Shown: positions 3,161-45,150 of the stretch, piece after piece
Position numbering within the stretch: the stretch's first letter is position 1
How the letters are laid out: every line of letters starts with the position of its first letter
Assembly: GCA_029858505.1 (NCBI GenBank)
Contig: JAOUEW010000004.1
Location: 131,779-195,778 of the forward strand
Length of the DNA stretch: 64,000 nt
Source: Deltaproteobacteria bacterium
GTDB taxonomy: Bacteria > SAR324 > JACQKK01
Direction of reading: 5' to 3'
The notes under the pieces: generated by a model
Databases searched by the model: none
Told to the model about the DNA's origin: nothing
Seen by the model: the letters and a program-made list of their open reading frames with translations, nothing else
Position numbers and translations under genes: made by a program

Positions 3161-3270
3161 TTCCCCCTTCCCCCTTCCTCCAGGGAAGGGGGTTGATTTT
3201 AGGGGGAGGTTTCACCCCCCACTCCCCCCTTTCACGGCAAAAACCCTGGGGATGCAGAGGTTTTGGAGTT
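3161..3270 (+). repeat. Dispersed intergenic repeat family A, copy 1 (G/C-tract hairpin element)
   Basis: ~110 bp sharing ccttcc..gggaaggggg(t/a)tgatttta..gggg..cccc..ccccctttcacggcaaaaa(c/t)cc..g..t(g/a)(c/t)agaggttt with copies at 44375-44480 (same orientation) and 40425-40530 (reverse complement). Confidence 0.6.
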
Positions 3271-12588: not shown

Positions 12589-13080
12589 ATGAAAACCAAG
12601 ATCATGCGATGGCCAGTGTTGGGTGTGGCGTTCGGAATAGGTCTGCTGATGGCCTGGGAGCCCCACCCCGCTGTGGCCATGGGGGAAGGGGAGGCCTTAG
12701 GAGGGCTGATTGAACTATCGTTTGATTTGTCCTCGACCACGACTGAAATCATGCTATGGAAAGACAAACAGGATGAAGAAAAAGAAAGGGATGAGAAAAA
12801 GAAGGGGGCGGAAACCCCCTCCGCCACCCAGCGGGAATACTTGAGACGAGAGGGAGAAAATCTGGCTCAGGAAGCCGCCCAGGGGGGCGGAGAGCGCTTG
12901 GTGGTGGTGGCCGAATGGATGGGCTGCCCGGCAAAAATTCACCCGGCGTTTTTCCGGGCAATACAGGCCAAGCAGCCGGGTCTGTTCTTTTCCGGCGCCA
13001 ACCCAGACGCCACCTGGGCGGGCATTCGTGAAACCGTGCGCCAAACCCCGGAACTGGCTGCCCGGTGCCAGGCGCCTTGA
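12589..13080 (+). CDS. Hypothetical secreted protein
   Basis: 163-aa ORF with N-terminal signal-like hydrophobic segment and a Lys/Glu-rich low-complexity stretch; plausible RBS (aggagag) upstream. Confidence 0.45.
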   Translation: MKTKIMRWPVLGVAFGIGLLMAWEPHPAVAMGEGEALGGLIELSFDLSSTTTEIMLWKDKQDEEKERDEKKKGAETPSATQREYLRREGENLAQEAAQGGGERLVVVAEWMGCPAKIHPAFFRAIQAKQPGLFFSGANPDATWAGIRETVRQTPELAARCQAP

Positions 13081-13220
13081 GTTGGAAGCGTATTGTGGAT
13101 GAATTGGCTGTAAGGTTTACTTAGGGGGCTTGCCGGGGGGGAGGGAAACAGCGTAGGTTTTTCTGGAACCCCTGTTTTTTTCCACTTCCTATCGTTTCTC
13201 CATCTTCCGGCCAAGATTCC

Positions 13221-14144
13221 ATGCAGGTCCATTCCTTCCGTCCTGTGTTCTTCCCCCGTCCGGCGGTGCTGACCCTGGGGAATTTCGACGGCATGCATCT
13301 GGGCCACCAAGCCTTGGCCCGGCGGGTGGCAGAGGAAGCCCATCGTCTGGGGGGGGTGTCTACCCTGGTGACCTTTCACCCCCACCCCCAAAACGTGCTG
13401 GGGGCCCACCCGGAGCCCCAGATTACCCCCCTGGCCATGCGGTTGAGTTTGCTGGGGCCCTTGGGGCTGGACCGGGCGGTGGTGATTGGCTTCAGCCGCG
13501 ACATGGCCCGGCTGACCCCCGCCGAGTTTATCGAGGAATATCTGCTGAAGCGCTTTCCTTTGGTGAAGCTGATCGTGGGGTACGACTTTGCCTTTGGGGC
13601 TGGGCGTCAGGGCACCCACTTTCGCCTGGAAGAGTTGGGCCGCCGCCATGGATTTGAGGTGGAGGTTTTCCCCGAAGTGCGGGTGGAGGGAGAAGTGGTG
13701 AAATCCACCGCCATCCGCAAGTTGTTGGAGGCCTGTCGCTTTCACGAGGCGGCCCGGCTGTTGGGCCGTCCGTTTTCCCTGGCGGCACCGGTGGCGCGGG
13801 GCGATGGCCGGGGCAGTCAGCTGGGCTTTCCCACTCTGAATCAGCCCCTGGAAGAACCCCTGCCCCTGCAAAAGGGGGTGTACGTAACCACGGTGCGGCT
13901 GGCGGGGCAGACCTATCCCGCCGTGAGCAACTATGGCCGCCGCCCCACCGTGGGGGGGCACCAACTGGTGATGGAATCTCACCTGCTGGATTTTGACCGA
14001 AAGGTGTACGGGGCCATGGCGGAAGTTACCCCCCACACCATGCTGCGAAGCGAGCAGGCCTTCCCCTCGTTGCAGGCCCTGGCCCAGCAAATTGACCAGG
14101 ACCGGCTCCAAGCCCGTGCTTGGCACCAGGCCCAAAGCCGCTGA
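13221..14144 (+). CDS. ribF: Bifunctional riboflavin kinase / FMN adenylyltransferase
   Basis: 307 aa; N-terminal nucleotidyltransferase motif GNFDGMHLGHQ, C-terminal riboflavin-kinase motifs (RGDGRGSQLGFPTLN, E.HLLDF). Confidence 0.9.
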   Translation: MQVHSFRPVFFPRPAVLTLGNFDGMHLGHQALARRVAEEAHRLGGVSTLVTFHPHPQNVLGAHPEPQITPLAMRLSLLGPLGLDRAVVIGFSRDMARLTPAEFIEEYLLKRFPLVKLIVGYDFAFGAGRQGTHFRLEELGRRHGFEVEVFPEVRVEGEVVKSTAIRKLLEACRFHEAARLLGRPFSLAAPVARGDGRGSQLGFPTLNQPLEEPLPLQKGVYVTTVRLAGQTYPAVSNYGRRPTVGGHQLVMESHLLDFDRKVYGAMAEVTPHTMLRSEQAFPSLQALAQQIDQDRLQARAWHQAQSR

Positions 14145-14533
14145 TCCATGATAGATAACGGGCGGATTGTGTTTCAGGGGATGCCCAACCATTGAGACGC
14201 CCCAAGACCCCCAGCGCCTCCTATTTTGTTCCCTAGATCAACCCTCGTTCTTGGGGGGGGCGCTGTCCAGTGGAGCAAAGCTCAGCCTTTTGCGCCAGTG
14301 GGTTGATTTTATTGGGCGAACCCCCACGCCATATTTTTCATAAGAAAAGTCCTGCCTTATGTGCCTGATGAAGTAGAATTCGCCCCCCTGATTCTCCCAT
14401 TCATTTCTTAATGTCTTGCTTTTTAACGCCCATTATAATATTGCAATGGTTAGCGGGGGTGGCTTTTTCCCCCGCAAGAAAGACCTGGCTTAAATAAGGG
14501 CCGGTATTTCAATTCAATCTCTAGGAGATCATC

Positions 14534-15016
14534 ATGATGAAAAAGATGGCTGTTATTTCCATGGTGTTTGGCTTGGCTTTGGCCGGCAACGCCATGGCCA
14601 CTGCCGACGGCGCCGGTTGCGGTGTGGGTCAGCAACTTTTCAAAGGTAAAACCGGATTGGTCAACCATGTGTTGGCCTTCTCTGTCAACGGAACCTTTTC
14701 TGGCACTTCTTCCATTACCTCTGGCACCTCTGGCTGCCATGCCAACGACTCCACCCTGATGCGCGAAAAAGAGCAGCGCGAGTTCATTTCCCTGAACCAG
14801 GACAACCTGTCTTTGGATATGGCCCAAGGCCGCGGTGAGTATCTCTCCACGCTGACTGGCCTGATGGGCTGCTCGGTGGAAGCCCAAGGCGACTTCGCCC
14901 GGATGACCCAGTCCAAGTACGCTGAATTGGCTGGTTCTTCCGACATGCTGAACGCCATCAAAAGCGAACTGGCTGCCGATCCTAAACTGGCCAAAGCTTG
15001 CAGCCGGATTTCCTAA
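14534..15016 (+). CDS. Small secreted four-cysteine protein, DUF3015-like (family assignment from memory)
   Basis: 160 aa, signal peptide, four Cys at conserved spacing (GAGCGVG, TSGCHAND, LMGCSVEA, KACSRIS); paralog of the next gene. Confidence 0.6.
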   Translation: MMKKMAVISMVFGLALAGNAMATADGAGCGVGQQLFKGKTGLVNHVLAFSVNGTFSGTSSITSGTSGCHANDSTLMREKEQREFISLNQDNLSLDMAQGRGEYLSTLTGLMGCSVEAQGDFARMTQSKYAELAGSSDMLNAIKSELAADPKLAKACSRIS

Positions 15017-15071
15017 TCATTTTCCGGGCCGGAGGACGTTCCCCCGGACGGTTTAAACATCCAGATTCATC

Positions 15072-15578
15072 ATGGAGAATACAATGAAAAAACTCATCGG
15101 ATTGGTGATTGCCCTGGGGCTGTTTGCCCCCATGGCCATGGCCGACAACGGCGGTGCTGCCTGCGGTATTGGTGCCACCCTGTTGCGGGGCAAAAGCGGC
15201 GTGGGCCCCCACCTGTCGGCAACCTTTACGGACAGCTTTGTGGAGTACGGTAACTTGCTGTCTTTGACCACCGGAAACTTTAAGCCTGGGTTCTTGGGCT
15301 GCGACCCCAAAAACTCCGTGATCCAACGGGATATGGAGCGCCGGGACTTCGCCAAAGCCAACCAAGAAAACCTCTCCCGCGACATGGCCGCTGGACAGGG
15401 CGAATACCTGAGCACTTTCTCCGGCATGATGGGCTGCTCTCCTGAAGCCCAAGCTCAGTTTGCCCGGGTGATGCAGGCCAAATACAGCAAAATTTCCGCC
15501 AACGCCGACATGGTGGAAGCGGTGAAACTGGAAATGGCCGCCGATCCTCGGTTGGCTTCCGCTTGCAGCCTGTCTTAA
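15072..15578 (+). CDS. Small secreted four-cysteine protein, DUF3015-like paralog
   Basis: 168 aa; collinear with the previous ORF incl. all four Cys (AACGIG, FLGCDPKN, MMGCSPEA, SACSLS) and the shared block GEYLST..GMMGCS.EAQ..FAR..Q.KY. Confidence 0.6.
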   Translation: MENTMKKLIGLVIALGLFAPMAMADNGGAACGIGATLLRGKSGVGPHLSATFTDSFVEYGNLLSLTTGNFKPGFLGCDPKNSVIQRDMERRDFAKANQENLSRDMAAGQGEYLSTFSGMMGCSPEAQAQFARVMQAKYSKISANADMVEAVKLEMAADPRLASACSLS

Positions 15579-15602
15579 TTTGTCTTTTTTTGGCTGAAAC
15601 GA

Positions 15603-15637
15603 ACCGCCCTTCACGCAAGTGGAGGGCGGTTTTTTTA
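15603..15637 (+). terminator. Rho-independent terminator after the DUF3015 pair (ccgcccttcac-gcaa-gtggagggcgg + T7)
   Basis: 11-bp stem with a GCAA tetraloop followed by ttttttt. Confidence 0.8.
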
Positions 15638-15759
15638 TGGGGTTTTATTTCCCGGTGAATACCCGGTAAGATTTTTGGGTTACGTCTTTTTTGGCGTTCG
15701 GTTTTTCCTCCAATCATTCGGCTACGGCTGTCTGCCCAATCAACTTTCTTCATTTCCCT

Positions 15760-17784
15760 ATGCGCAAAATTTATTTACTTCCTTTGTTCTTGATGGCCTG
15801 GGGGTTGGCGGCCCTTCCGGCGCTGGCCCAGCAATCCGAGGAACCCAAACCAATTATCGCTACCTATGTTCCCCGGAACCCTCAAGAGGGATTGACCCCG
15901 ATTCAATTGGAGCGACTGGCCCAGTTGATGAAAAAGGCCGAGGAAAAAGACCTGTGGAACAACTCGTACTGGCACACGCTGCTGCGATACCAAAAGGGCT
16001 GGTTTGGCGGGGTGAAAAGCCAGGCAGATTCGCCGGTTTTCTTCTTCTCTCCGCAGGGCAAGACCAACCCTAAGGCCGAATTGGAGGCCAATGTGGCGGC
16101 GTTCTTCATGGACAAGCCAGGTTGGAACCGGATGGCGGTTACACCTCAATGTGCGTTTCCTGCCCGCTACCGCTGGCTAAAGGAACAACTGGAATTTAAC
16201 CCCATTTGGATACCCGAACAGACATGCCCAGAGTTTGAATATTGGCGGAAGCAAATTGATATCCAATCCGTGACCTTCATTTACAGCTCTTTTTACATCA
16301 ACAGCCCGGTTTCTGCTTTTGGCCATACCTTCGTTCGGTTGGACAACAAAAAACACACCGATGACCAACGGCTGATGGACCGTGCCATCAATTTTGCCGC
16401 GGCCATCCCCGAGGAAGATACCCATGGGGTCATGTGGGTTTTTTACGGGCTGTTTGGCGGCTACCCCGGGGTGTTCAGCCAGTCACCCTATTACATGAAA
16501 GTGTTGGAATACAGCGACTCTGAAAAACGGGATTTGTGGGAATACCGATTAAACTTTACGCAGGAGGAAAACGACCGGGTGGTAGCTCACCTGTGGGAAA
16601 TGCAATGGGTGTATTTTGATTATTACTTCTTTGATGAAAATTGCTCGTACCATATGCTGCCGGTTTTGGAGGCAGCCCGGCCCGGCCTGAACATGAGGGA
16701 TCATTACCTGCTGTTTACTTTGCCCACCGACACCGTGAGAGATGTGGCCACGGAACCTGGTTTGGTGAGTAAGGTCACCTACCGACCCAGCCGCCTTTCT
16801 CAGATGAAAAAACGGGTGGACATGGTTCCCCCCGCGTTGCGGAGCTTGGCGGATGATCTGGCGGAAAATCCAGCCCTGTATGAAACCCCCGAAGTCAAGG
16901 GGTTAGATGATCCCAGCCGAATCGCCATGCTCGACGCGGCTGTGGAGCGGATCAGGATTCACCTGGATGTAGGGGAACAGACCCCCAACACCGAGCAAAC
17001 TGCGCTTCGCCAGAAACTGAGCCAATTGTTGCTGTTTCGCTCGCAGATACCGGTAGCCAGCCCGCCCATGGACTTTACCCCCTGGCCCCCCAAGGTGGAA
17101 GAAGGTCATAAACCCAGCCGACTGGCGTTGTCGGGTGGGGGCTGGGAGGTTCCGGGGGTGCCCGGAATCCCCACGAGGTTTACTCGGGTGAGCCTGATGC
17201 CGGTGTTTCAAGAGATGCTGTCGGATGATCGGGGGTATGCCGAAAACAGCCAAGTGATCATGTTTCATCTGCAAGGCCGCTATGATGAAGAGACGAAACA
17301 GGGATATTTTGAAAAATTTGACGTGCTAGACGTCATATCCCTGGTGCCATTGTCCAGCGTGCAAAAAACCATGTCCTGGCAGTTTTCTGGGGGTTGGCAT
17401 GATTACGTGGAAACCCCCTGCCCCAACTGTTTGCAGGCTTATTTAAAGGCAGGTTTTGGTTACGCCTTGCAATCTCACGCCTGGGAGCGGGAAACCTTTG
17501 CCCTGATGGGGGGTGCCACCCTGAATGCTGGGCCCATGTTTGATCAGGGCCGGCGGGCGGATGCGTGGGTGGAGGGCTCGTTTTACCTGAACTTGGCGCC
17601 ATGGTGGCGCATGGGTTTTGTGGGGTCCCGCATTGCCCGGGGCAACAACACCCCCGACCCGATGGTGAACGAAGGGTCCTTCCGCCAGCGGTTGACCCTA
17701 AGCCAAAACTGGGAGCTACGCACCGATGTGACCCTGCGTACCGGTCGGCAAGAAGCTTCTGCCGGGCTGGGGTGGTGGTTTTAA
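15760..17784 (+). CDS. DUF4105 (Lnb N-terminal periplasmic domain-like) protein with C-terminal outer-membrane beta-barrel-type ending
   Basis: ~675 aa from MRKIYLLPLFLMAWGLAALPALA (signal peptide); N-terminal region matches the DUF4105 pattern as I recall it; protein ends ...GLGWWF (aromatic C-terminal residue typical of OMPs). The ORF track starts 23 codons earlier at 15691. Confidence 0.55.
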   Translation: MRKIYLLPLFLMAWGLAALPALAQQSEEPKPIIATYVPRNPQEGLTPIQLERLAQLMKKAEEKDLWNNSYWHTLLRYQKGWFGGVKSQADSPVFFFSPQGKTNPKAELEANVAAFFMDKPGWNRMAVTPQCAFPARYRWLKEQLEFNPIWIPEQTCPEFEYWRKQIDIQSVTFIYSSFYINSPVSAFGHTFVRLDNKKHTDDQRLMDRAINFAAAIPEEDTHGVMWVFYGLFGGYPGVFSQSPYYMKVLEYSDSEKRDLWEYRLNFTQEENDRVVAHLWEMQWVYFDYYFFDENCSYHMLPVLEAARPGLNMRDHYLLFTLPTDTVRDVATEPGLVSKVTYRPSRLSQMKKRVDMVPPALRSLADDLAENPALYETPEVKGLDDPSRIAMLDAAVERIRIHLDVGEQTPNTEQTALRQKLSQLLLFRSQIPVASPPMDFTPWPPKVEEGHKPSRLALSGGGWEVPGVPGIPTRFTRVSLMPVFQEMLSDDRGYAENSQVIMFHLQGRYDEETKQGYFEKFDVLDVISLVPLSSVQKTMSWQFSGGWHDYVETPCPNCLQAYLKAGFGYALQSHAWERETFALMGGATLNAGPMFDQGRRADAWVEGSFYLNLAPWWRMGFVGSRIARGNNTPDPMVNEGSFRQRLTLSQNWELRTDVTLRTGRQEASAGLGWWF

Positions 17785-17844
17785 GGGAGGCTTTGAGGGA
17801 CGCCGCCTGAAAGGTGGCAGGGAGGGGTAACGTTGTAAACATCC

Positions 17845-18726
17845 ATGTCTGGGGCTTTCATGACGACTCGGATGACGATGGGGCTGGCCGGGGTGTTGGC
17901 CGGACTGCTGGCCATGATGCTCGGCGGCTGCGATTCGCTGTTCTATCAACCCAGCCGGGCCATGACCGCCACCCCGGAGAATATCCATCTGGCCTACTCT
18001 GACCTGTGGCTGGAAAGCCCAGGTCAGCCCAAGCTCCACGGCTGGCTGCTGCCCGCCAAGGGCCCCCGCAAGGGGTGGGTGGTGGTGTTCCACGGCAACG
18101 CGGCCAATATTTCGAATCACATGTATGGGGTGCATTGGCTCCCTGGCGAAGGCTACTCGGTGATGGTTTGGGATTACCGGGGCTATGGCCGCAGCGCGGG
18201 AGAGCCCGACCGGGAAGGCTTGGTGAACGATGGAGAGCGGGCCCTGGCCAAGGCCCGTGAACTGGCGGGCAACGAACCCCTGTTTGTTTATGGCCAAAGC
18301 CTGGGGGGGGCCGTGGCCCTGGCCACCTTGGGTAAAACCGGCATCACGGGCCTGAACGGGCTGATTCTGGAATCCACCTTTGGCTCTTACCGGGCGATGG
18401 CCAGGGAAAAAATGAGCGAGCTGTGGCCCCTGTGGCCGATTCAATACCCCTTGTCTTGGCTGCTGATCTCTGAGGAGTGGAACGGCGAAGACCCTCTTCC
18501 CAAGCTGGCGGCCCTTCCTCTGCTGGTGGCTCACCAGGTGGATGACCCGGTGGTGTCATTCGACAATGGGAAGCGCCTGTTTGATTCCTTCCCTGGCGCC
18601 GACAAAACCTTCCTCCCCTTGGATGAGGACGGGCATATCAGCGTGTTTGCCCCCAAATACAGCCCCTACCGCAAGCCATTGCTCGATTGGATGGACAAAC
18701 GGCGGCAGAGAACCCCAGCCCCCTAA
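17845..18726 (+). CDS. Alpha/beta-hydrolase fold lipoprotein (esterase/peptidase-like)
   Basis: 293 aa; lipobox LGGC; nucleophile elbow GQSLGG, conserved HGNAAN oxyanion region, Asp and His downstream. Confidence 0.7.
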   Translation: MSGAFMTTRMTMGLAGVLAGLLAMMLGGCDSLFYQPSRAMTATPENIHLAYSDLWLESPGQPKLHGWLLPAKGPRKGWVVVFHGNAANISNHMYGVHWLPGEGYSVMVWDYRGYGRSAGEPDREGLVNDGERALAKARELAGNEPLFVYGQSLGGAVALATLGKTGITGLNGLILESTFGSYRAMAREKMSELWPLWPIQYPLSWLLISEEWNGEDPLPKLAALPLLVAHQVDDPVVSFDNGKRLFDSFPGADKTFLPLDEDGHISVFAPKYSPYRKPLLDWMDKRRQRTPAP

Positions 18727-18879
18727 AACCCGCTGCCCTGCTTTCCCTCTTCCTTCCCCCCTTCCCCCTTCCCCCCACTCTATTCTCGCCCTTCCCCTCA
18801 CTCCAAAACGCTTGGTTTTTTGTTGTGCCACCCACCTGAGGGTTGGATGTCTCGGTGCTGACTAGAAATATTCCCTGGT

Positions 18880-19420
18880 CTTTCGCAATTTCATAAAAAG
18901 GGAGTTATTTGGACATTTCTCGTTTAACCGAATAGAACAAAGCACAGGCATATTTCCGCAAAGTCACATGGAGATGGATGAAAAGAATAACTTATATAAG
19001 TAAAAATACATAATAATTAGTATTTTTAGGTGAAACAACGGACCGTGTTATTATAAGTAATATATACTTAAATGAATATATTCACATGGGCCATCTGTTC
19101 ATATTTTCATTGATTATTTTTACATATACGCTTAAAAGGAACGTTAGACAGATAGAATACCAAACAGAGATATAGTTCAGTAATATATACTCATTCTTGT
19201 TCTCAATAAAAAAACTTTTCGTTATAAGTGGTAAATTAACTTATTTTCGTATATTTACTTGGAGCTGTGTTTTGTGGAAAGGCATTGGCAGGAAAAAACC
19301 GGAATAGGTTCCAATAAAAACAAAACATATCAATTTGATATGAATAGATAGGCCCAAGTAAGCCAGGGACGGGAAACGTCATCCATCCGCCTTGGATTCT
19401 GAAACGGTTGAAGTTTGATC
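18880..19420. other. AT-rich (~30% GC) non-coding island in a ~60% GC genome, with short repeated motifs (ttataagt x3, gtaatatatact x2)
   Basis: Composition shift visible directly; no ORF >15 codons with a plausible start; sits immediately upstream of the CI-like regulator gene. Confidence 0.7.
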
Positions 19421-19487
19421 CGTGAAAGGGTGGGGAAGGATCGAATTGGATGGTTTCCCTACAATCTTTTTTCGAAAGATCAACATC

Positions 19488-19934
19488 ATGGCTACTCCCC
19501 AAACGCTTCATGACATTATTGAGCGTGTTGAATATTTGCGGACGTTTTTGGGGTTAAACAAAAGCCGATTTTCCGGGGAAATTGGCCTGAAACCCCAAAC
19601 CTACAATAATTTTATTGGGGCCCAGGGCAGCAAGCCCAGCATTGAATTGGTGATGGGGGTGGTGCAGCGGTTTGGGGTCAACCCCACTTGGGTGCTGACC
19701 GGGGGTGGGGGTATGTTTCAGGACGAGGTCAGTGAGAAACGAGCCCTGGAAACCCTGCGGGGGGGGAGTTATGATTCTGTGGTGGCCGATTCGTACCAGC
19801 GGGAAAAAGACAGCAAACGCCGGGAGGATGTGATGGAGAACTTGCTTAAAAAAATGGAAACCTTTGAAGAGACCCTGCGGCAGATGGACCAGCGCCTTCA
19901 GCAGATGGGAAACCCGCAAGATACGAAACGATAA
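19488..19934 (+). CDS. Phage CI-repressor-type HTH transcriptional regulator (N-terminal HTH, C-terminal charged coiled-coil; no peptidase S24 domain)
   Basis: 148 aa from MATPQTL; LNKSRFSGEIGLKPQTYNNF HTH followed by GVNPTWVLTG, which is the NP.W(L/V)L.G signature of the Phage_CI_repr family; GC lower than flanking genes. The ORF track starts at 19422. Confidence 0.6.
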   Translation: MATPQTLHDIIERVEYLRTFLGLNKSRFSGEIGLKPQTYNNFIGAQGSKPSIELVMGVVQRFGVNPTWVLTGGGGMFQDEVSEKRALETLRGGSYDSVVADSYQREKDSKRREDVMENLLKKMETFEETLRQMDQRLQQMGNPQDTKR

Positions 19935-20159
19935 CAGGAATTCCTCTCGGCAGGCCCTTTTTTTACGCCCTTTACGTTTATTTTCCCCCGATTTTTCTCG
20001 GGATTTTTTTTCCCCTTTTGGGGGAGAATAGGATTTGCCTTTGACGGAGACTTCCCGCAAGAATATAGGAAATTGTTAGCCCTTCCGCTGAGGATAGCAG
20101 GGCGGAATTTCGCCCCAGGGAACCAAAACAGGGGGGGGTGATAAAACCAAGGATCGGCC

Positions 20160-21317
20160 ATGGCTTTCGCCACGGGACAACCCATCAGCCCCATGCTGGG
20201 GGCTTTGTCTCAATATCAAATTCTGTTGGTGGACGATGACCCCACCAACTTGCAGGTGTTGTCGAACTGCTTAATGCCCCAGGGATACCGTCTGCTGCAT
20301 GCCACCCATGGCGAGCGGGCCCTTTCCATTTGCCAAAACACCACCCCCGACTTGGTGCTGCTGGACGTTGGACTGCCCGGCATGGATGGGTTCGAGGTCT
20401 GCCGTCAGTTAAAAGCCCTTCGAAGTTTGGCCGATACTCCGGTGGTGTTTTTGTCGGCGTTTAAAGACTCGGCCAGCAAGGTGAAGGGGTTTCAGGCCGG
20501 GGGGGTGGACTATGTGGATAAACCGTTTAACTACGATGAACTGTTGGCCCGGGTGGAAACCCACCTCACCCTGAAAATCGCCCGGCAAAAACTGGCCCGC
20601 CAAAACGAAGAAATTGAAAGCCTGCTGCACGTGCTTTCCCACGATTTGTCGAACCCCCTTTCGGCCATCATGGGGTTCTGCCAGCTGGCTTCCATTCTGC
20701 CCACCTATCAAGACCCCGACACCCAAGAATTGTGGCGCAACGTGCATCTGGCCCTGGCCCAGCAAGAGGAAATTATCGAGCACGTGCGCGAAATGCGGGC
20801 GTTGGAAATGGGCAAGAAGACCATCGAGCTTACGCCGGTGAACCTGGGAGATTCGCTGCTGACCGTGGCGAAAATTTTTCATCATAAGCTGAGCGAAAAG
20901 CAAATCCATCTCGATTTACAACTGACTCCTGAAAAGGAAAACTGGAAGGTAATGGCGGAGTACACCAGCCTGACCCACAACGTGATGAGCAATCTGGTGT
21001 CGAACGCCATCAAGTTTTCCGACCGGGGAAAGACCGTGTCCATTTCTCTGGAGGAAGAACCTGTGGGGAAGATTCACCTGTCGGTGGCCGACCAGGGGAT
21101 TGGCATTCCTGATGATCTGTTGAAAACCATCTTTTCCAACGACCAGCCCACCAGCCGGCCCGGCACCGAAATGGAACTGGGCACCGGGTTTGGCATGCCC
21201 CTGGTGAAAAAATACGTGGAGATTTACGGGGGAGAGATCGAAGTGGAAAGCATGTCTCGGGTGAGCGGAGGGGGCACCAGCGGCACCACCATTCATCTGC
21301 GCTTGAAGCGGGCCTAA
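20160..21317 (+). CDS. Hybrid response-regulator receiver / histidine kinase (REC-HisKA-HATPase_c), soluble, no sensor domain
   Basis: 385 aa; REC with phospho-acceptor context LLDVGLPGMDG; H-box LSHDLSNPLSAI; N, G1 (DQGIGIP) and G2 (GTGFGMPLV) boxes. Confidence 0.85.
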   Translation: MAFATGQPISPMLGALSQYQILLVDDDPTNLQVLSNCLMPQGYRLLHATHGERALSICQNTTPDLVLLDVGLPGMDGFEVCRQLKALRSLADTPVVFLSAFKDSASKVKGFQAGGVDYVDKPFNYDELLARVETHLTLKIARQKLARQNEEIESLLHVLSHDLSNPLSAIMGFCQLASILPTYQDPDTQELWRNVHLALAQQEEIIEHVREMRALEMGKKTIELTPVNLGDSLLTVAKIFHHKLSEKQIHLDLQLTPEKENWKVMAEYTSLTHNVMSNLVSNAIKFSDRGKTVSISLEEEPVGKIHLSVADQGIGIPDDLLKTIFSNDQPTSRPGTEMELGTGFGMPLVKKYVEIYGGEIEVESMSRVSGGGTSGTTIHLRLKRA

Positions 21318-21414
21318 ATAAAAGGGGCTCCGGGCTGGAAGACAGGCAAAAAAGGAGGAAAAACCTGTCTAGGGGGTTCCAGTCCGGAGCTTTCCGGGGG
21401 CAGGGGATGCCCTG

Positions 21415-21591
21415 CTAATTCTCGAACATTTCGCTGTTTCCCCAACGGTGGCCCACATGGGAATGGGCCACGCTTTTTTGATCGGGCAGCTTTTGAATCA
21501 TCCCGCCTTCTTTTAGAAAACGCTGGATGGCCCGCTGTAGTTCCTGATGCGAGATGGTTTGTTTTTCTTTTCCCTTCCGGTGTGAGATCAC
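21415..21591 (-). CDS. Possible small ORF (59 codons from a GTG) with no ATG start; uncertain
   Basis: Open frame of 101 codons on the minus strand ending ...KEKQTISHQELQRAIQRFLKEGGMIQKLPDQKSVAHSHVGHRWGNSEMFEN*; protein-like composition but no recognisable family and no canonical start. Confidence 0.2.
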   Translation of the reverse strand: MISHRKGKEKQTISHQELQRAIQRFLKEGGMIQKLPDQKSVAHSHVGHRWGNSEMFEN

Positions 21592-21805
21592 GGCAGACTC
21601 CCGCTGCGAGGGTGGGTAGAATGTCCATGGGCCCCTGGAATGGCTAGGCGCGCCATGGACGGGGGTCTTCTTCCATGTTAAACGTTCTAACCATATAGAG
21701 GTTTGATCTCCCCAAAAGGTTCAAATGGGACCCGCATGGAGGGAAATCAACCCATCTACCCGTGTACGCACTGAAATCGCTCACCCTTTTTCTTTGGTAT
21801 CTCGC

Positions 21806-22846
21806 ATGTTTCCCGTTCCCCCTTTGAAAAACGATCTGTTCTTCCGGGCCTTGAATCACCAGCCGGTGCCCCGGGTGCCGGTGTGGATGATGCGCCAAGC
21901 GGGCCGCTCTGACCCTGAATACAACGCCTACAAAGAAAAAAGCGGCCTGACCCTGCACCAATTGTTTCGCAGCCCAGAACACGCCGCTGAAATTTCTTTG
22001 CTGCCCCGCCGGTTTGGGGTGGACGCCATCATTTTTTTTCAAGATATTCTGACCCCCCTGGAACCCATGGGGGCCGACTTTCACTTTGTTCCCGGCCCCA
22101 AGCTGGCCGCCCCCCTGCGCCACGTGGATCAGGTGCAGAACCTGACGACCTTTGACCCGGCCGAAGGGCTGCCCTTTGTGGCCCAAACCCTGGCCGAGGT
22201 CAACCGCCGGCTGGCGGGGGAACTGCCCCTGCTGGGGTTTGCCGGCGCCCCGTTTACCCTGGCGGCTTTTTTGATTGAAGGGGGCAGCCCCATGAAGGGC
22301 ATGCCCCACACCCTGGCCTTTGCCGCCGAGCAGCCCAGGGCTTTTATGCAGCTGCTGGATAAACTGGCCGAAGTGACCACCCTGTATTTAAACCACCAGT
22401 TGGCCTCTGGCGCCCATGCCGTGCAGTTGTTCGAGTCGGCGGGAGATTTGATCCCCGAGGAACTCTACAAGCGTTACGCCCAGCCCATTCACCAGGCCAT
22501 TCTGGAGTCGGTGCGGGGGCCTTCCATTTTGTTCGTGAAGGATTCTCCCTTCCCCGATTTAATGGCCCAAACCCCGGCGGCGGTGTTGAGCCTGGGTCAC
22601 CAGGTGAACCTGAAAGACATGCTGGCCCGTGGCCAGGGGCGCTATGCCGTTCAGGGCAACGTCAGCAATCAATTGCTGGCGACCGGAACCCCCGACCAGG
22701 TGGCCCAGGCCGTGGCCAACTGCATTCGCTCCACCGGGGGCCGGGGGCATATTCTCAACCTGGACCACGGCCTAAAGGCCGAAACCCCCTTCCAAAATGT
22801 GCTGGCCTTTGTGCAGGCGGCCAAAAATACCCCCCTGGGGGCCTAA
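21806..22846 (+). CDS. hemE: Uroporphyrinogen decarboxylase
   Basis: Signature PVWMMRQAGR near the N-terminus; start placed at MFPVPPLKNDLFFRAL (the ORF track extends 27 codons upstream). Confidence 0.9.
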   Translation: MFPVPPLKNDLFFRALNHQPVPRVPVWMMRQAGRSDPEYNAYKEKSGLTLHQLFRSPEHAAEISLLPRRFGVDAIIFFQDILTPLEPMGADFHFVPGPKLAAPLRHVDQVQNLTTFDPAEGLPFVAQTLAEVNRRLAGELPLLGFAGAPFTLAAFLIEGGSPMKGMPHTLAFAAEQPRAFMQLLDKLAEVTTLYLNHQLASGAHAVQLFESAGDLIPEELYKRYAQPIHQAILESVRGPSILFVKDSPFPDLMAQTPAAVLSLGHQVNLKDMLARGQGRYAVQGNVSNQLLATGTPDQVAQAVANCIRSTGGRGHILNLDHGLKAETPFQNVLAFVQAAKNTPLGA

Positions 22847-44374: not shown

Positions 44375-44480
44375 CCCCATCCCACTGGCCCCTTCCCTGG
44401 GGGAAGGGGGATGATTTTATTGGGGGGCTTCCCCCATTCCCCCTTTACGGCAAAAATCCGGGTTATGTAGAGGTTTCAAA
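44375..44480 (+). repeat. Dispersed repeat family A, copy 2
   Basis: ccttccctgggggaagggggatgattttattggggggcttcccccattccccctttacggcaaaaatccgggttatgtagaggtttc aligns with 3161-3270. Confidence 0.55.
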
Positions 44481-45002: not shown

Positions 45003-45150
45003 TTTTTGCTTCCATGCTCGAAGCCATCGGCGATTCTTTTCAACCATTCGGGAAGCATAGACTGGAAGGAAGCCATTACTTCACCCATCGGATTCGATTT
45101 ATTTCCCCTTCCCGTCGGGAAGGGGATGCTCCGTCAGGAGCAGGGGAGGA
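45003..45150 (+). repeat. Dispersed repeat family B, copy 3
   Basis: ccatgctcgaagccatcggcgattcttttcaaccattcgggaagcatagactggaaggaagcc...cacccatcggattcgat then hairpin ttccccttcccgtcgggaagggga. Confidence 0.5.

Follow-up and report, generated by a model that had tools for sequence, protein, structure and literature searches.

An AT-rich non-coding island in a SAR324 genome as the probable control region of a lineage-specific XRE-family regulator

We analyzed a 64-kb stretch of DNA (64,000 nucleotides, hereafter the window) containing an AT-rich non-coding island, next to which lies the gene of a 148-aa regulator with a helix-turn-helix (HTH) domain. The island is best explained as the extended upstream control region of this regulator, inherited with the gene and not recently imported, a reading to which we assign a probability of about 0.6. 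Most likely, the AT stretch is the unusually long control region found with this SAR324-type regulator in all genomes examined, and it would provide the HTH gene with its promoter, operator and leader. The features of the island and its surroundings are listed in Table 1.

Table 1. Features found in and around the AT-rich island (positions counted from the first nucleotide of the window).
Feature	Position	Strand	Basis and description
C/T-rich (polypyrimidine) tract	18744..18803	+	Repeat search; four imperfect 18-nt direct repeats
AT-rich non-coding island	18880..19420	.	Composition; ORF, Rfam, tRNA and fold checks; equivalents upstream of homologues
Dyad A, candidate	18990..19001	.	Palindrome ACTTATATAAGT; head-to-head half-sites ACTTAT and ATAAGT
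Dyad O1, candidate	19054..19070	.	TAAGTA-ATATA-TACTTA, 17 bp, perfect 6-nt inverted arms
Dyad O2, candidate	19177..19193	.	TCAGTA-ATATA-TACTCA, 5/6 positions symmetric
Dyad C, candidate	19225..19243	.	TAAGT-N9-ACTTA, then ACTTATTTT
148-aa XRE-family regulator	19488..19934	+	Pfam, alignments, AlphaFold2, Foldseek
Terminator-like hairpin CCCGA-loop-TCGGG, then T-run	19987..20011	+	Terminator scan; between the HTH and kinase genes
385-aa REC-HisKA-HATPase_c hybrid kinase	20160..21317	+	Three Pfam domains above cut-offs

The GC content of the island was 32.2%, and that of its core (18900-19260) 28.0%, against a window mean of about 58.4-58.5%. When the composition of the 64 kb was scanned in 300-nt segments (mean 58.4%, sd 6.3%), the minimum of 26.3% fell in the island and all other dips stayed at 40.7% or above. 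The original prediction of an AT island of about 30% GC in a GC-rich context was therefore correct, the island being the lowest-GC stretch of the window, and its statement that there is no credible ORF was confirmed as well, since no ORF lying wholly within the island exceeded 38 aa. The gene-free DNA 5' of the HTH gene spans 761 bp, and its left margin is marked by the polypyrimidine tract just 3' of the hydrolase stop codon. A 13-nt match between C-rich and G-rich sequences flanking the island was set aside as a composition effect, and CCCCTTCCCC-type words showed a modest excess in the window (36 vs 24.7 expected). A consensus promoter scan of the island revealed no sigma-70-like promoter, so that the promoter position in the window was not located. 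A replication origin of the hemE-linked oriC type, considered on account of a nearby hemE gene, was rejected: no TTATCCACA-like DnaA boxes (<=1 mismatch) were found in the island, their count in the window was that expected by chance, and the cumulative GC skew rose near-monotonically over the window and did not reverse at the island.

The genes on the right side of the island did not share its composition. The 28 ORFs of the window had a mean GC content of 59.3 +/- 4.9% and a mean GC3 of 0.733 +/- 0.067; the HTH gene presented 52.1% GC with a GC3 of 0.617 (-1.7 sd), and the kinase gene 55.3% GC with a GC3 of 0.710 (-0.3 sd). Both had been described as lower in GC than the core genes, a difference that proved marginal, as queF, Lnb_N, a TPR-like ORF and others in the window had equal or lower values. 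The compositional outlier is the non-coding island only, and the genes are not atypical.

The AlphaFold2 model of the 148-aa protein (pLDDT 80.5 overall) showed a predicted five-helix HTH domain in residues 4-71, with helices at 4-21, 25-32, 36-44, 52-62 and 66-71 (pLDDT >90), and a long helix in residues 104-139; in the model this C-terminal helical region appears coiled-coil-like. Foldseek matched the model to the DNA-binding domains of the 434 repressor, SinR, P22 c2 and C.AhdI (TM 0.72-0.80, rmsd 1.8-2.5 A), the first three reaching TM 0.75-0.80, and 186 CI and the N-terminal domain of TP901-1 CI were also among the matches. The modelled five-helix fold thus points to the XRE/Cro-C1-type HTH superfamily. 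Results of the Pfam search were below threshold for HTH_19 (25.8 bits vs a cut-off of 30.2, E 1e-5) and for HTH_3 (14.4 bits vs 23, E 0.04), and several homologues bear precomputed PF12844 or PF01381 matches. The protein had been proposed to be of CI type, with a Phage_CI_repr signature at its N-terminus. Phage_CI_repr (PF07022) gave no match even at E <= 10, where HTH_19, HTH_3 and noise were listed, and the stretch taken for the signature, GVNPTWVLTG, covers residues 64-73, where the HTH domain ends. Structure and profile searches gave only the generic XRE/Cro-C1 fold, which largely contradicts the CI-type identity. The proposed lack of an S24 autoprotease domain was borne out by Pfam, which gave no Peptidase_S24 match, and the C-terminal part of the model consists of a single long helix. 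The protein also weakly matched phrog_8 and phrog_4, two generic repressor families of PHROG, and its matches in phage databases were limited to Bacteroides phage repressors (35-39% identity over 68 residues).

The regulator is a member of a small family, defined here at E <= 1e-30, that occurs mainly in SAR324 genomes and comprises 64 clusters at 50% identity. The aligned proteins had a mean column identity of about 37% and were 36-50% identical to the window protein, and one stretch of the HTH domain, LNKSRFSxEIGMKPQTYNNFIGAQGSKPNVEL, was nearly invariant across them. The window protein is shorter than its homologues, lacking their last 35-40 residues (the C-terminal helix), and a search for a frameshifted remnant of this helix found none; from the alignment, the protein may be impaired because the C-terminal helix of its homologues is absent. 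A literature search on SAR324 HTH regulators found no paper.

Long gene-free regions 5' of the regulator were present in 9/9 gene-called loci, with lengths of at least 749 bp. Beside the window, these measured 810 bp (L002), 749 bp (L005), 1356 bp (L006), 1348 bp including a tRNA (L069), 938 bp (L075), 1054 bp (L076) and 1048 bp (L077). The GC content upstream of the gene dipped 15-35 points under the genome level in most of about 35 non-redundant loci, also in genomes of 66-70% GC, and at L069, the locus of the nearest homologue, the island had 28-30% GC in a genome of about 58% GC. The flanking genes vary among lineages; in one sub-clade, trkH is retained as the divergent upstream neighbour and TldD/PmbA as the downstream one, an arrangement that reads, from gene order, as ordinary chromosomal synteny. 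The same AT-enriched upstream DNA was thus found among differing neighbours, which argues that the island is inherited along with the gene family instead of having been acquired at this locus. Conserved small ORFs in the upstream regions were rejected: when all six-frame ORFs of 18 aa or longer from 37 loci were compared with one another by blastp, the only similarities were DNA-level ones between close pairs and the N-terminus of the divergent trkH.

We inspected the island for the repeated short motifs noted in the original prediction, and they exist: TTATAAGT has copies at 19051 and 19222, ACTTATATAAGT is a perfect 12-nt palindrome, and the 13-nt exact repeat AGTAATATATACT is located at 19056 and 19179. 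Direct repeats of at least 13 nt appeared in 1.2% of dinucleotide-preserving shuffles of the island (P ~0.012). The sequence ACTTA[A/T], a motif picked post hoc, was found six times vs 1.17 +/- 1.08 in the shuffles (P ~0.0015). These six sites form three dyads, and O2 is a fourth, weaker one. The first copy of the 13-nt repeat (19056-19068) is included in O1 and the second (19179-19191) in O2, the centres of both dyads being 123 bp apart. The dyads are plausible candidate operators; the spacing of the TAAGT/ACTTA pentamers varies among them (0, 7 and 9 nt), which counts against the control-region model.

An unbiased hexamer test, in which 34 upstream regions of the family were compared with dinucleotide shuffles, ranked TACTTA/TAAGTA at the top, with presence in 19/34 loci vs 4.8 expected (z 5.6), an enrichment partly inflated by shared ancestry and amounting to 1.6-fold under a local mononucleotide model (0.13-fold in the rest of the loci). 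The hexamers ATACTT, CATACT and ACTTAT were also highly ranked. The proposal of an intact control region with operator half-sites stood in part, i.e., the motifs noted contain the family-enriched TACTTA/TAAGTA, and the operators remain candidates. High-GC relatives share a conserved block of ~90 nt (CCATACTTATTTTAGG...CCACAAT...GCTTTACAA-N15-GATATA) located about 430-250 nt before the start codon, a position that implies a leader of 190-340 nt. Neither this putative promoter block nor a 52-nt upstream element of the relatives was detectable in the window island (nhmmer E >= 2), and blastn between the island and that of the nearest relative gave one weak match of 37 nt (E 0.008, the search space being tiny). 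The word ACTTATTTT, next to dyad C, recurs in the conserved upstream element of relatives. The upstream regions of the relatives presented single TAAGT/ACTTA sites only, and dyads were found only in the window; therefore, the invariant recognition helix has no matching conserved dyad operator.

In the mechanism that we propose, the island would contain one or more promoters together with sites for protein binding and, probably, a long untranslated leader. The regulator would oligomerise via its long C-terminal helix and is predicted to bind TAAGTA/TACTTA-type sites upstream of its own gene, with dyads A, O1, O2 and C as the predicted binding sites; this binding would lead to autoregulation, possibly with DNA looping over the 123 bp between O1 and O2. 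Such an organization would resemble that of Bacillus subtilis SinR and other XRE-family repressors that oligomerise through a helical C-terminal region. In SinR, a five-helix XRE/Cro-C1 domain is followed by helices (1b0n_A and 3qq6 among the Foldseek matches, TM ~0.77-0.80 for the DNA-binding domain), comparable with the HTH domain and long helix predicted here, and several inverted-repeat sites in a control region are associated with it, those of the window being candidates. Unlike SinR, the window locus has no SinI-like partner gene, the C-terminal part of the protein is a single long coiled-coil-like helix, truncated in this case, and a comparison of the HTH domain sequence with PDB chains gave no significant match. 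The Cro/CI-type phage repressors share the DNA-binding fold (2or1_L, 3jxb, 2fjr_A and 5a7l in Foldseek), and several dyads, again candidates in the window, could allow cooperative binding or looping. They differ in that the window protein has no Phage_CI_repr match, S24 domain or prophage context, and no member of its family was found in 2.9 million viral contigs.

The gene following the regulator encodes, as predicted, a REC-HisKA-HATPase kinase, all three domains being above their gathering scores (Response_reg 99.7, HisKA 30.8 and HATPase_c 76.9 bits). It resembles other sensor-less hybrid kinases of this layout in its domains and in the expected catalytic motifs, namely the phospho-acceptor Asp context LLDVGLPGMDG, the H-box SHDLSNPL and the N and G boxes; it differs in remaining below the cut-off of every named NCBIfam equivalog, the best being EpsF with 159.8 bits vs 900. 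More than 3,300 homologues were found at E <= 1e-20 across many phyla, and the best 120 of them had 65-98% query coverage, nearly all >86%. The nearest one (58% identity) lies in a different context, with no HTH gene.

The original prediction saw in this locus a horizontally acquired module, i.e., AT DNA and both regulatory genes brought jointly from a lower-GC donor, as an islet or as the remnant or boundary of a mobile element. The island is indeed the most AT-rich stretch of the window and the HTH gene is among the lower-GC genes; the synteny ribF-DUF3015-DUF3015-Lnb_N-hydrolase shared with a distant relative (L079) stops exactly at the hydrolase, which places the island at a breakpoint, and a tRNA lies ~1.2 kb upstream of the HTH gene in 3/35 homologue loci. 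The nearest homologues of the HTH protein, the kinase and the hydrolase showed 50%, 58% and 49% identity (overall about 47-58%), and their loci were not syntenic with the window beyond the hydrolase. However, the long AT-enriched upstream region accompanies the regulator in all lineages examined, including those of 66-70% GC, and the ~35 loci compared point to an AT spacer as old as the gene family. No integrase or transposase was found near the block, whose neighbour ORFs had hydrolase, Lnb_N, DUF3015, URO-D and JAB Pfam domains, and the only tRNA detected in the 64 kb is far off (~57981). Flanking direct or inverted repeats were absent, with no convincing bounding repeats, att sites or terminal inverted repeats in 17500-22500; the island had no similarity to plasmids or phages, and IMG/VR viral contigs lacked the family. 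The kinase has a typical GC3 and is not a neighbour of the HTH gene at the other loci examined. Acquisition was thus not borne out, and we consider it quite improbable. The breakpoint would also suit a non-functional spacer, that is, decayed AT-biased DNA at a rearrangement junction whose repeats arose by chance or slippage, and so would the C-terminal shortening of the window HTH protein relative to all homologues and the absence from the island of the block conserved in relatives. Against this stand the recurrence of the AT-enriched upstream region in the family while its neighbours change, the enrichment of the TACTTA-type motif both within the island and family-wide, and the low probability of the 13-nt exact repeat in shuffled sequence; we give it as little credit as acquisition.

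The long gene-free region would also be explained by a non-coding RNA that has escaped annotation or by a leader that is long and structured, e.g., a riboswitch, a reading that appears only slightly less improbable than those two. The extent of gene-free DNA in every gene-called locus fits this idea, as do the long leaders implied by the promoter-like element of the relatives, 250-370 nt before the start codon, and the minus-strand fold z-score of the island (-1.85). As a set, the fold z-scores for the island region on both strands were unremarkable, however, the plus-strand values being -0.58 and +0.94. A search of the window with Rfam 15 yielded only the ~57981 tRNA at gathering score, and the matches in 18650-20200 at E <= 10 were noise, far below threshold. 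For the leaders of two clades of relatives, RNAalifold gave weak consensus structures (-10.0 and -7.5 kcal/mol over 240-295 columns) in which covariation counted as a penalty, and the leader sequences were poorly conserved except for ~30-40 nt before the start codon. The notion of a functional signalling pair of a non-canonical kind, made up of the HTH regulator and the kinase, fared worse, and we regard it as highly improbable. In the window, one gene directly follows the other on one strand, but a 225-bp spacer with the terminator-like hairpin and T-run parts them, their adjacency was seen in no other locus examined from either gene's side, and a large, phylogenetically broad kinase family with a very common layout is set against a small, lineage-restricted HTH family. 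The kinase would be a separately transcribed, unrelated neighbour of the regulator.

Under the control-region reading, the feature is of an ordinary kind and belongs to a lineage-specific regulator that is uncharacterised. The result carries a caution: even a conspicuous AT-rich island in GC-rich surroundings is not necessarily foreign DNA. Here, the comparison of ~35 independent loci suggests that the AT island is a heritable property of the control region of one regulator. As by-products, the analysis provides an uncharacterised, mainly SAR324 family with a nearly invariant DNA-reading head, and the candidate motif TACTTA/TAAGTA, which together make a concrete hypothesis on regulator binding in an uncultured group. 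A more ambitious and rather unlikely version would have the family acting as a lineage-wide master or nucleoid-type regulator, with the conserved AT-rich upstream region of at least 750 bp and its TACTTA-type sites working as a complex multi-site looping autoregulatory switch or also hosting an undescribed regulatory RNA; if true, an abundant marine lineage that is uncultured would gain a new control element amenable to experiments.

The island had a GC content of 32.2%, decreasing to 28.0% in its core, and included the lowest 300-nt GC value of the window (26.3%, against a mean of 58.4% and sd of 6.3%); all the other dips across the 64 kb were at or above 40.7%. The longest ORF confined to it was of 38 aa, so the original prediction of an AT-rich stretch without a credible ORF was borne out. 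No tRNA was found in the island by a tRNA scan, and Rfam gave no match at the gathering score and only noise at relaxed thresholds. A structured RNA in the island (fold z-scores of -0.58, +0.94 and -1.85), conserved micro-ORFs in the upstream regions (none found) and a replication origin linked to hemE (neither DnaA boxes nor a skew switch) were considered and rejected. The HTH gene had 52.1% GC (GC3 0.617) and the kinase gene 55.3% (GC3 0.710), the means of 28 window ORFs being 59.3 +/- 4.9% and 0.733 +/- 0.067; the core genes queF (52.3%) and Lnb_N (54.5%) were equally low and a TPR-like ORF was lower (46.6%). The compositionally atypical part is the non-coding stretch only. At the left margin of the intergenic DNA, directly 3' of the stop codon of the hydrolase gene, a polypyrimidine (C/T) tract contains four imperfect 18-nt direct repeats.

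Positions of the features in the window and in loci from other genomes (L-numbers)
Feature	Locus	Position or length	Detail
Conserved gene order	window	12589-18726 (with the third DUF3015 paralogue)	ribF to S33 hydrolase
Conserved gene order	L079	1324-7981	ribF to S33 hydrolase
Third DUF3015 paralogue	window	12589-13080	ahead of ribF
Polypyrimidine tract	window	18744-18803	60 nt
Island	window	18880-19420	
Island core	window	18900-19260	
Dyad A	window	18990-19001	ACTTAT-ATAAGT; perfect palindrome ACTTATATAAGT
TTATAAGT	window	19051, 19222	
AGTAATATATACT	window	19056, 19179	
Dyad O1	window	19054-19070	TAAGTA-ATATA-TACTTA
Dyad O2	window	19177-19193	TCAGTA-ATATA-TACTCA; 13-nt core common to O1; 123 bp from O1
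Dyad C	window	19225-19243	TAAGT-N9-ACTTA
HTH gene	window	19488-19934 (+)	148 aa
Terminator-like hairpin and T-run	window	19987-20011	
Kinase gene	window	20160-21317 (+)	385 aa
CCCCTTCCCC / GGGGAAGGGG inverted pairs	window	3164-3191, 44389-44409, 45105-45125	intergenic
90-nt block	L002	5644-5731	
90-nt block	L009	4638-4725	
90-nt block	L050	913-1000	
90-nt block	L017	4672-4759	also in about 15 further loci
Inverted repeat	L069	2432-2576	perfect, 17 nt
Gene-free DNA 5' of HTH gene	window	761 bp	
Gene-free DNA 5' of HTH gene	L002	810 bp	
Gene-free DNA 5' of HTH gene	L005	749 bp	
Gene-free DNA 5' of HTH gene	L006	1356 bp	
Gene-free DNA 5' of HTH gene	L069	1348 bp	includes one tRNA
Gene-free DNA 5' of HTH gene	L075	938 bp	
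Gene-free DNA 5' of HTH gene	L076	1054 bp	
Gene-free DNA 5' of HTH gene	L077	1048 bp	

A long gene-free stretch preceded the HTH gene in every locus with gene calls, and in most of about 35 non-redundant loci, from genomes spanning 48% to 70% GC, GC in the 400-800 bp leading up to the start codon was 15-35 points under the local genome level. The locus of the nearest homologue (P0002, 50% identity, at L069) closely mirrors the window, with an upstream stretch of ~700 bp down to 28-30% GC in ~58% GC DNA. This locus also carries a perfect inverted repeat (GAGACCTCTGCATAACT / AGTTATGCAGAGGTCTC) around ~110 nt with a CCCCTTCCCC/GGGAAGGGGG hairpin, which looks like a miniature repeat element, and a tRNA-Ala(CGC) lies ~1.2 kb 5' of the HTH gene both there and in L034. 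The neighbours of the HTH gene vary between lineages. In one sub-clade trkH is divergent from it across 750-1,050 bp (L005, L076 and L077 by gene calls; L009, L026 and L043 by similarity), and L002 and L076 have SelR upstream and TldD/PmbA downstream, an arrangement that is ordinary chromosomal synteny and argues for a core rather than a mobile gene family. Since the AT-rich spacer recurs among differing neighbours, the comparison indicates that it comes with the HTH gene family and was not acquired at the window site.

An origin of the island and both genes by horizontal transfer or from a mobile element, as originally proposed, would fit the position of the island at a synteny breakpoint, where the order ribF-DUF3015-DUF3015-Lnb_N/DUF7840-S33 hydrolase, common to the window and the distant, higher-GC relative L079, stops exactly at the hydrolase. 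This breakpoint is of little use for judging recent events because the relatives are at only 47-49% identity; the collections searched included no close relatives of the source lineage. Transfer was not supported by the rest of the evidence: there were no mobility genes (Pfam), no nearby tRNA, no bounding repeats and no plasmid or phage similarity of the island, and the AT-rich spacer is family-wide. Phage matches of the 148-aa protein were limited to Bacteroides phage repressors, weak and over the HTH, and to generic PHROG families; PADLOC gave it no match, and no member of its family was found in IMG/VR viral contigs.

The 148-aa protein had been described as CI-type with a Phage_CI_repr signature, for which Pfam gave no match even at E <= 10. 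HTH_19 scored 25.8 bits (cut-off 30.2), HTH_3 appeared at E 0.04, and NCBIfam returned nothing. An AlphaFold2 model built with 66 homologues (mean pLDDT 80.5) presented a five-helix domain at residues 4-71 and a long helix at 104-139. Foldseek matches in the PDB (434 repressor, SinR, P22 c2, C.AhdI, HigA, 186 CI and TP901-1 CI; TM 0.72-0.80, E > 0.01) were confined to the DNA-binding domain, and for the C-terminal part a profile search of PDB sequences gave coiled-coil noise only. Together these results point to a generic XRE/Cro-C1-type HTH protein carrying a helical tail rather than to a CI repressor in particular. A borderline Pfam match to DUF1570 over the linker and helix (residues 56-128; 22.7 bits, cut-off 22, E 1.3e-4) is probably an artefact of composition.

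The family is small: when 1.84 billion cluster representatives were scanned in full with its HMM, 64 reached E <= 1e-30 and 249 reached E <= 1e-10. Most of the named members belong to MAGs of SAR324 or 'Deltaproteobacteria'. A length of 170-190 aa is usual and, despite only 36-50% identity to the window protein, the segment LNKSRFSxEIGMKPQTYNNFIGAQGSKPNVEL is nearly invariant. The N-terminus coincides with the homologue starts, which confirms the ATG at 19488; the C-terminus is 35-40 residues short, and no frameshifted remnant was found downstream. Four proteins from the profile search, P0286 (484 aa), P0293 (521 aa), P0336 (667 aa) and P0312 (889 aa), carry 5-7 tandem copies of the same HTH type, an unusual architecture related to this family.

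The kinase matched Response_reg, HisKA and HATPase_c, all over Pfam cut-offs. This layout is common: more than 3,300 homologues were found at E <= 1e-20, and the best 120 listed were nearly all full-length (360-390 aa), from Desulfobacterales, Spirochaetes, Aminicenantes, Deferribacterales, Kiritimatiellia, Methylococcaceae and others. The proposed HTH-kinase module was not supported: the 225-bp spacer between the genes contains a terminator-like hairpin, and the kinase adjoined the HTH gene in none of the other loci examined. At L072, where the kinase has its nearest homologue (58% identity), the context is different again and the HTH gene is absent. CCCCTTCCCC / GGGGAAGGGG inverted pairs recurring elsewhere in the window are probably intrinsic-terminator stems of the source genome.

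All the motifs listed in the original prediction were present in the island. The island's own sequence, shuffled with dinucleotides preserved, served as the null, which is fairer than one based on the GC-rich window: 1.2% of shuffles contained an exact direct repeat of at least 13 nt, and six ACTTA[A/T] sites, a motif picked post hoc, were found against 1.17 +/- 1.08 expected (P ~0.0015). In an unbiased hexamer test of 34 upstream regions of the family against dinucleotide shuffles, TACTTA/TAAGTA ranked top (19 loci, 4.8 expected, z 5.6, with shared ancestry among many loci), followed by TATACT, TTTACA, ATACTT, CATACT and ACTTAT; under a cruder local-composition model the motif was only 1.6-fold enriched in the upstream regions, the value for the remaining parts of the loci being 0.13-fold. 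These hexamers are the building words of the predicted motifs and form four dyads in the window, with single sites, not dyads, in relatives.

High-GC relatives presented a conserved block of ~90 nt, 430-250 nt before the HTH start codon, detected by nhmmer in ~14 independent loci at E 1e-12 to 1e-19 (first half alone in five more). It reads CCATACTTATTTTAGG, CCACAAT, CCACA, a -35-like GCTTTACAA and, after 15 nt, GATATA or GGTTAGA; three yCAyA repeats (CCATACTTATT..., CCACAAT, CCACA), ~22 and ~11 nt apart, precede GCTTTACAA-N15-GATATA, and the block looks like an activator-site array with a promoter. Its position would give leaders of ~190-340 nt, which were poorly conserved and yielded no convincing consensus structure (RNAalifold -10.0 and -7.5 kcal/mol, covariation terms being penalties). 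The window island had no copy detectable by nhmmer, nor a sigma-70-like promoter in a consensus scan. A control region with operator-like repeats is plausible, with some family-wide support in the hexamer enrichment.

In the best-supported reading, the island would serve an autoregulated XRE-type regulator as its control region and leader. Oligomers of this protein, formed by way of the C-terminal helix, would bind sites of the TAAGTA/TACTTA type, with looping possible between O1 and O2; SinR and Cro/CI-type repressors work by this mechanism. The original observation was largely correct. The feature, a regulator together with the region that controls it, is of an ordinary kind; it stands out only because this region is so long and AT-rich and because the regulator is from an uncharacterised family that occurs chiefly in SAR324 genomes.
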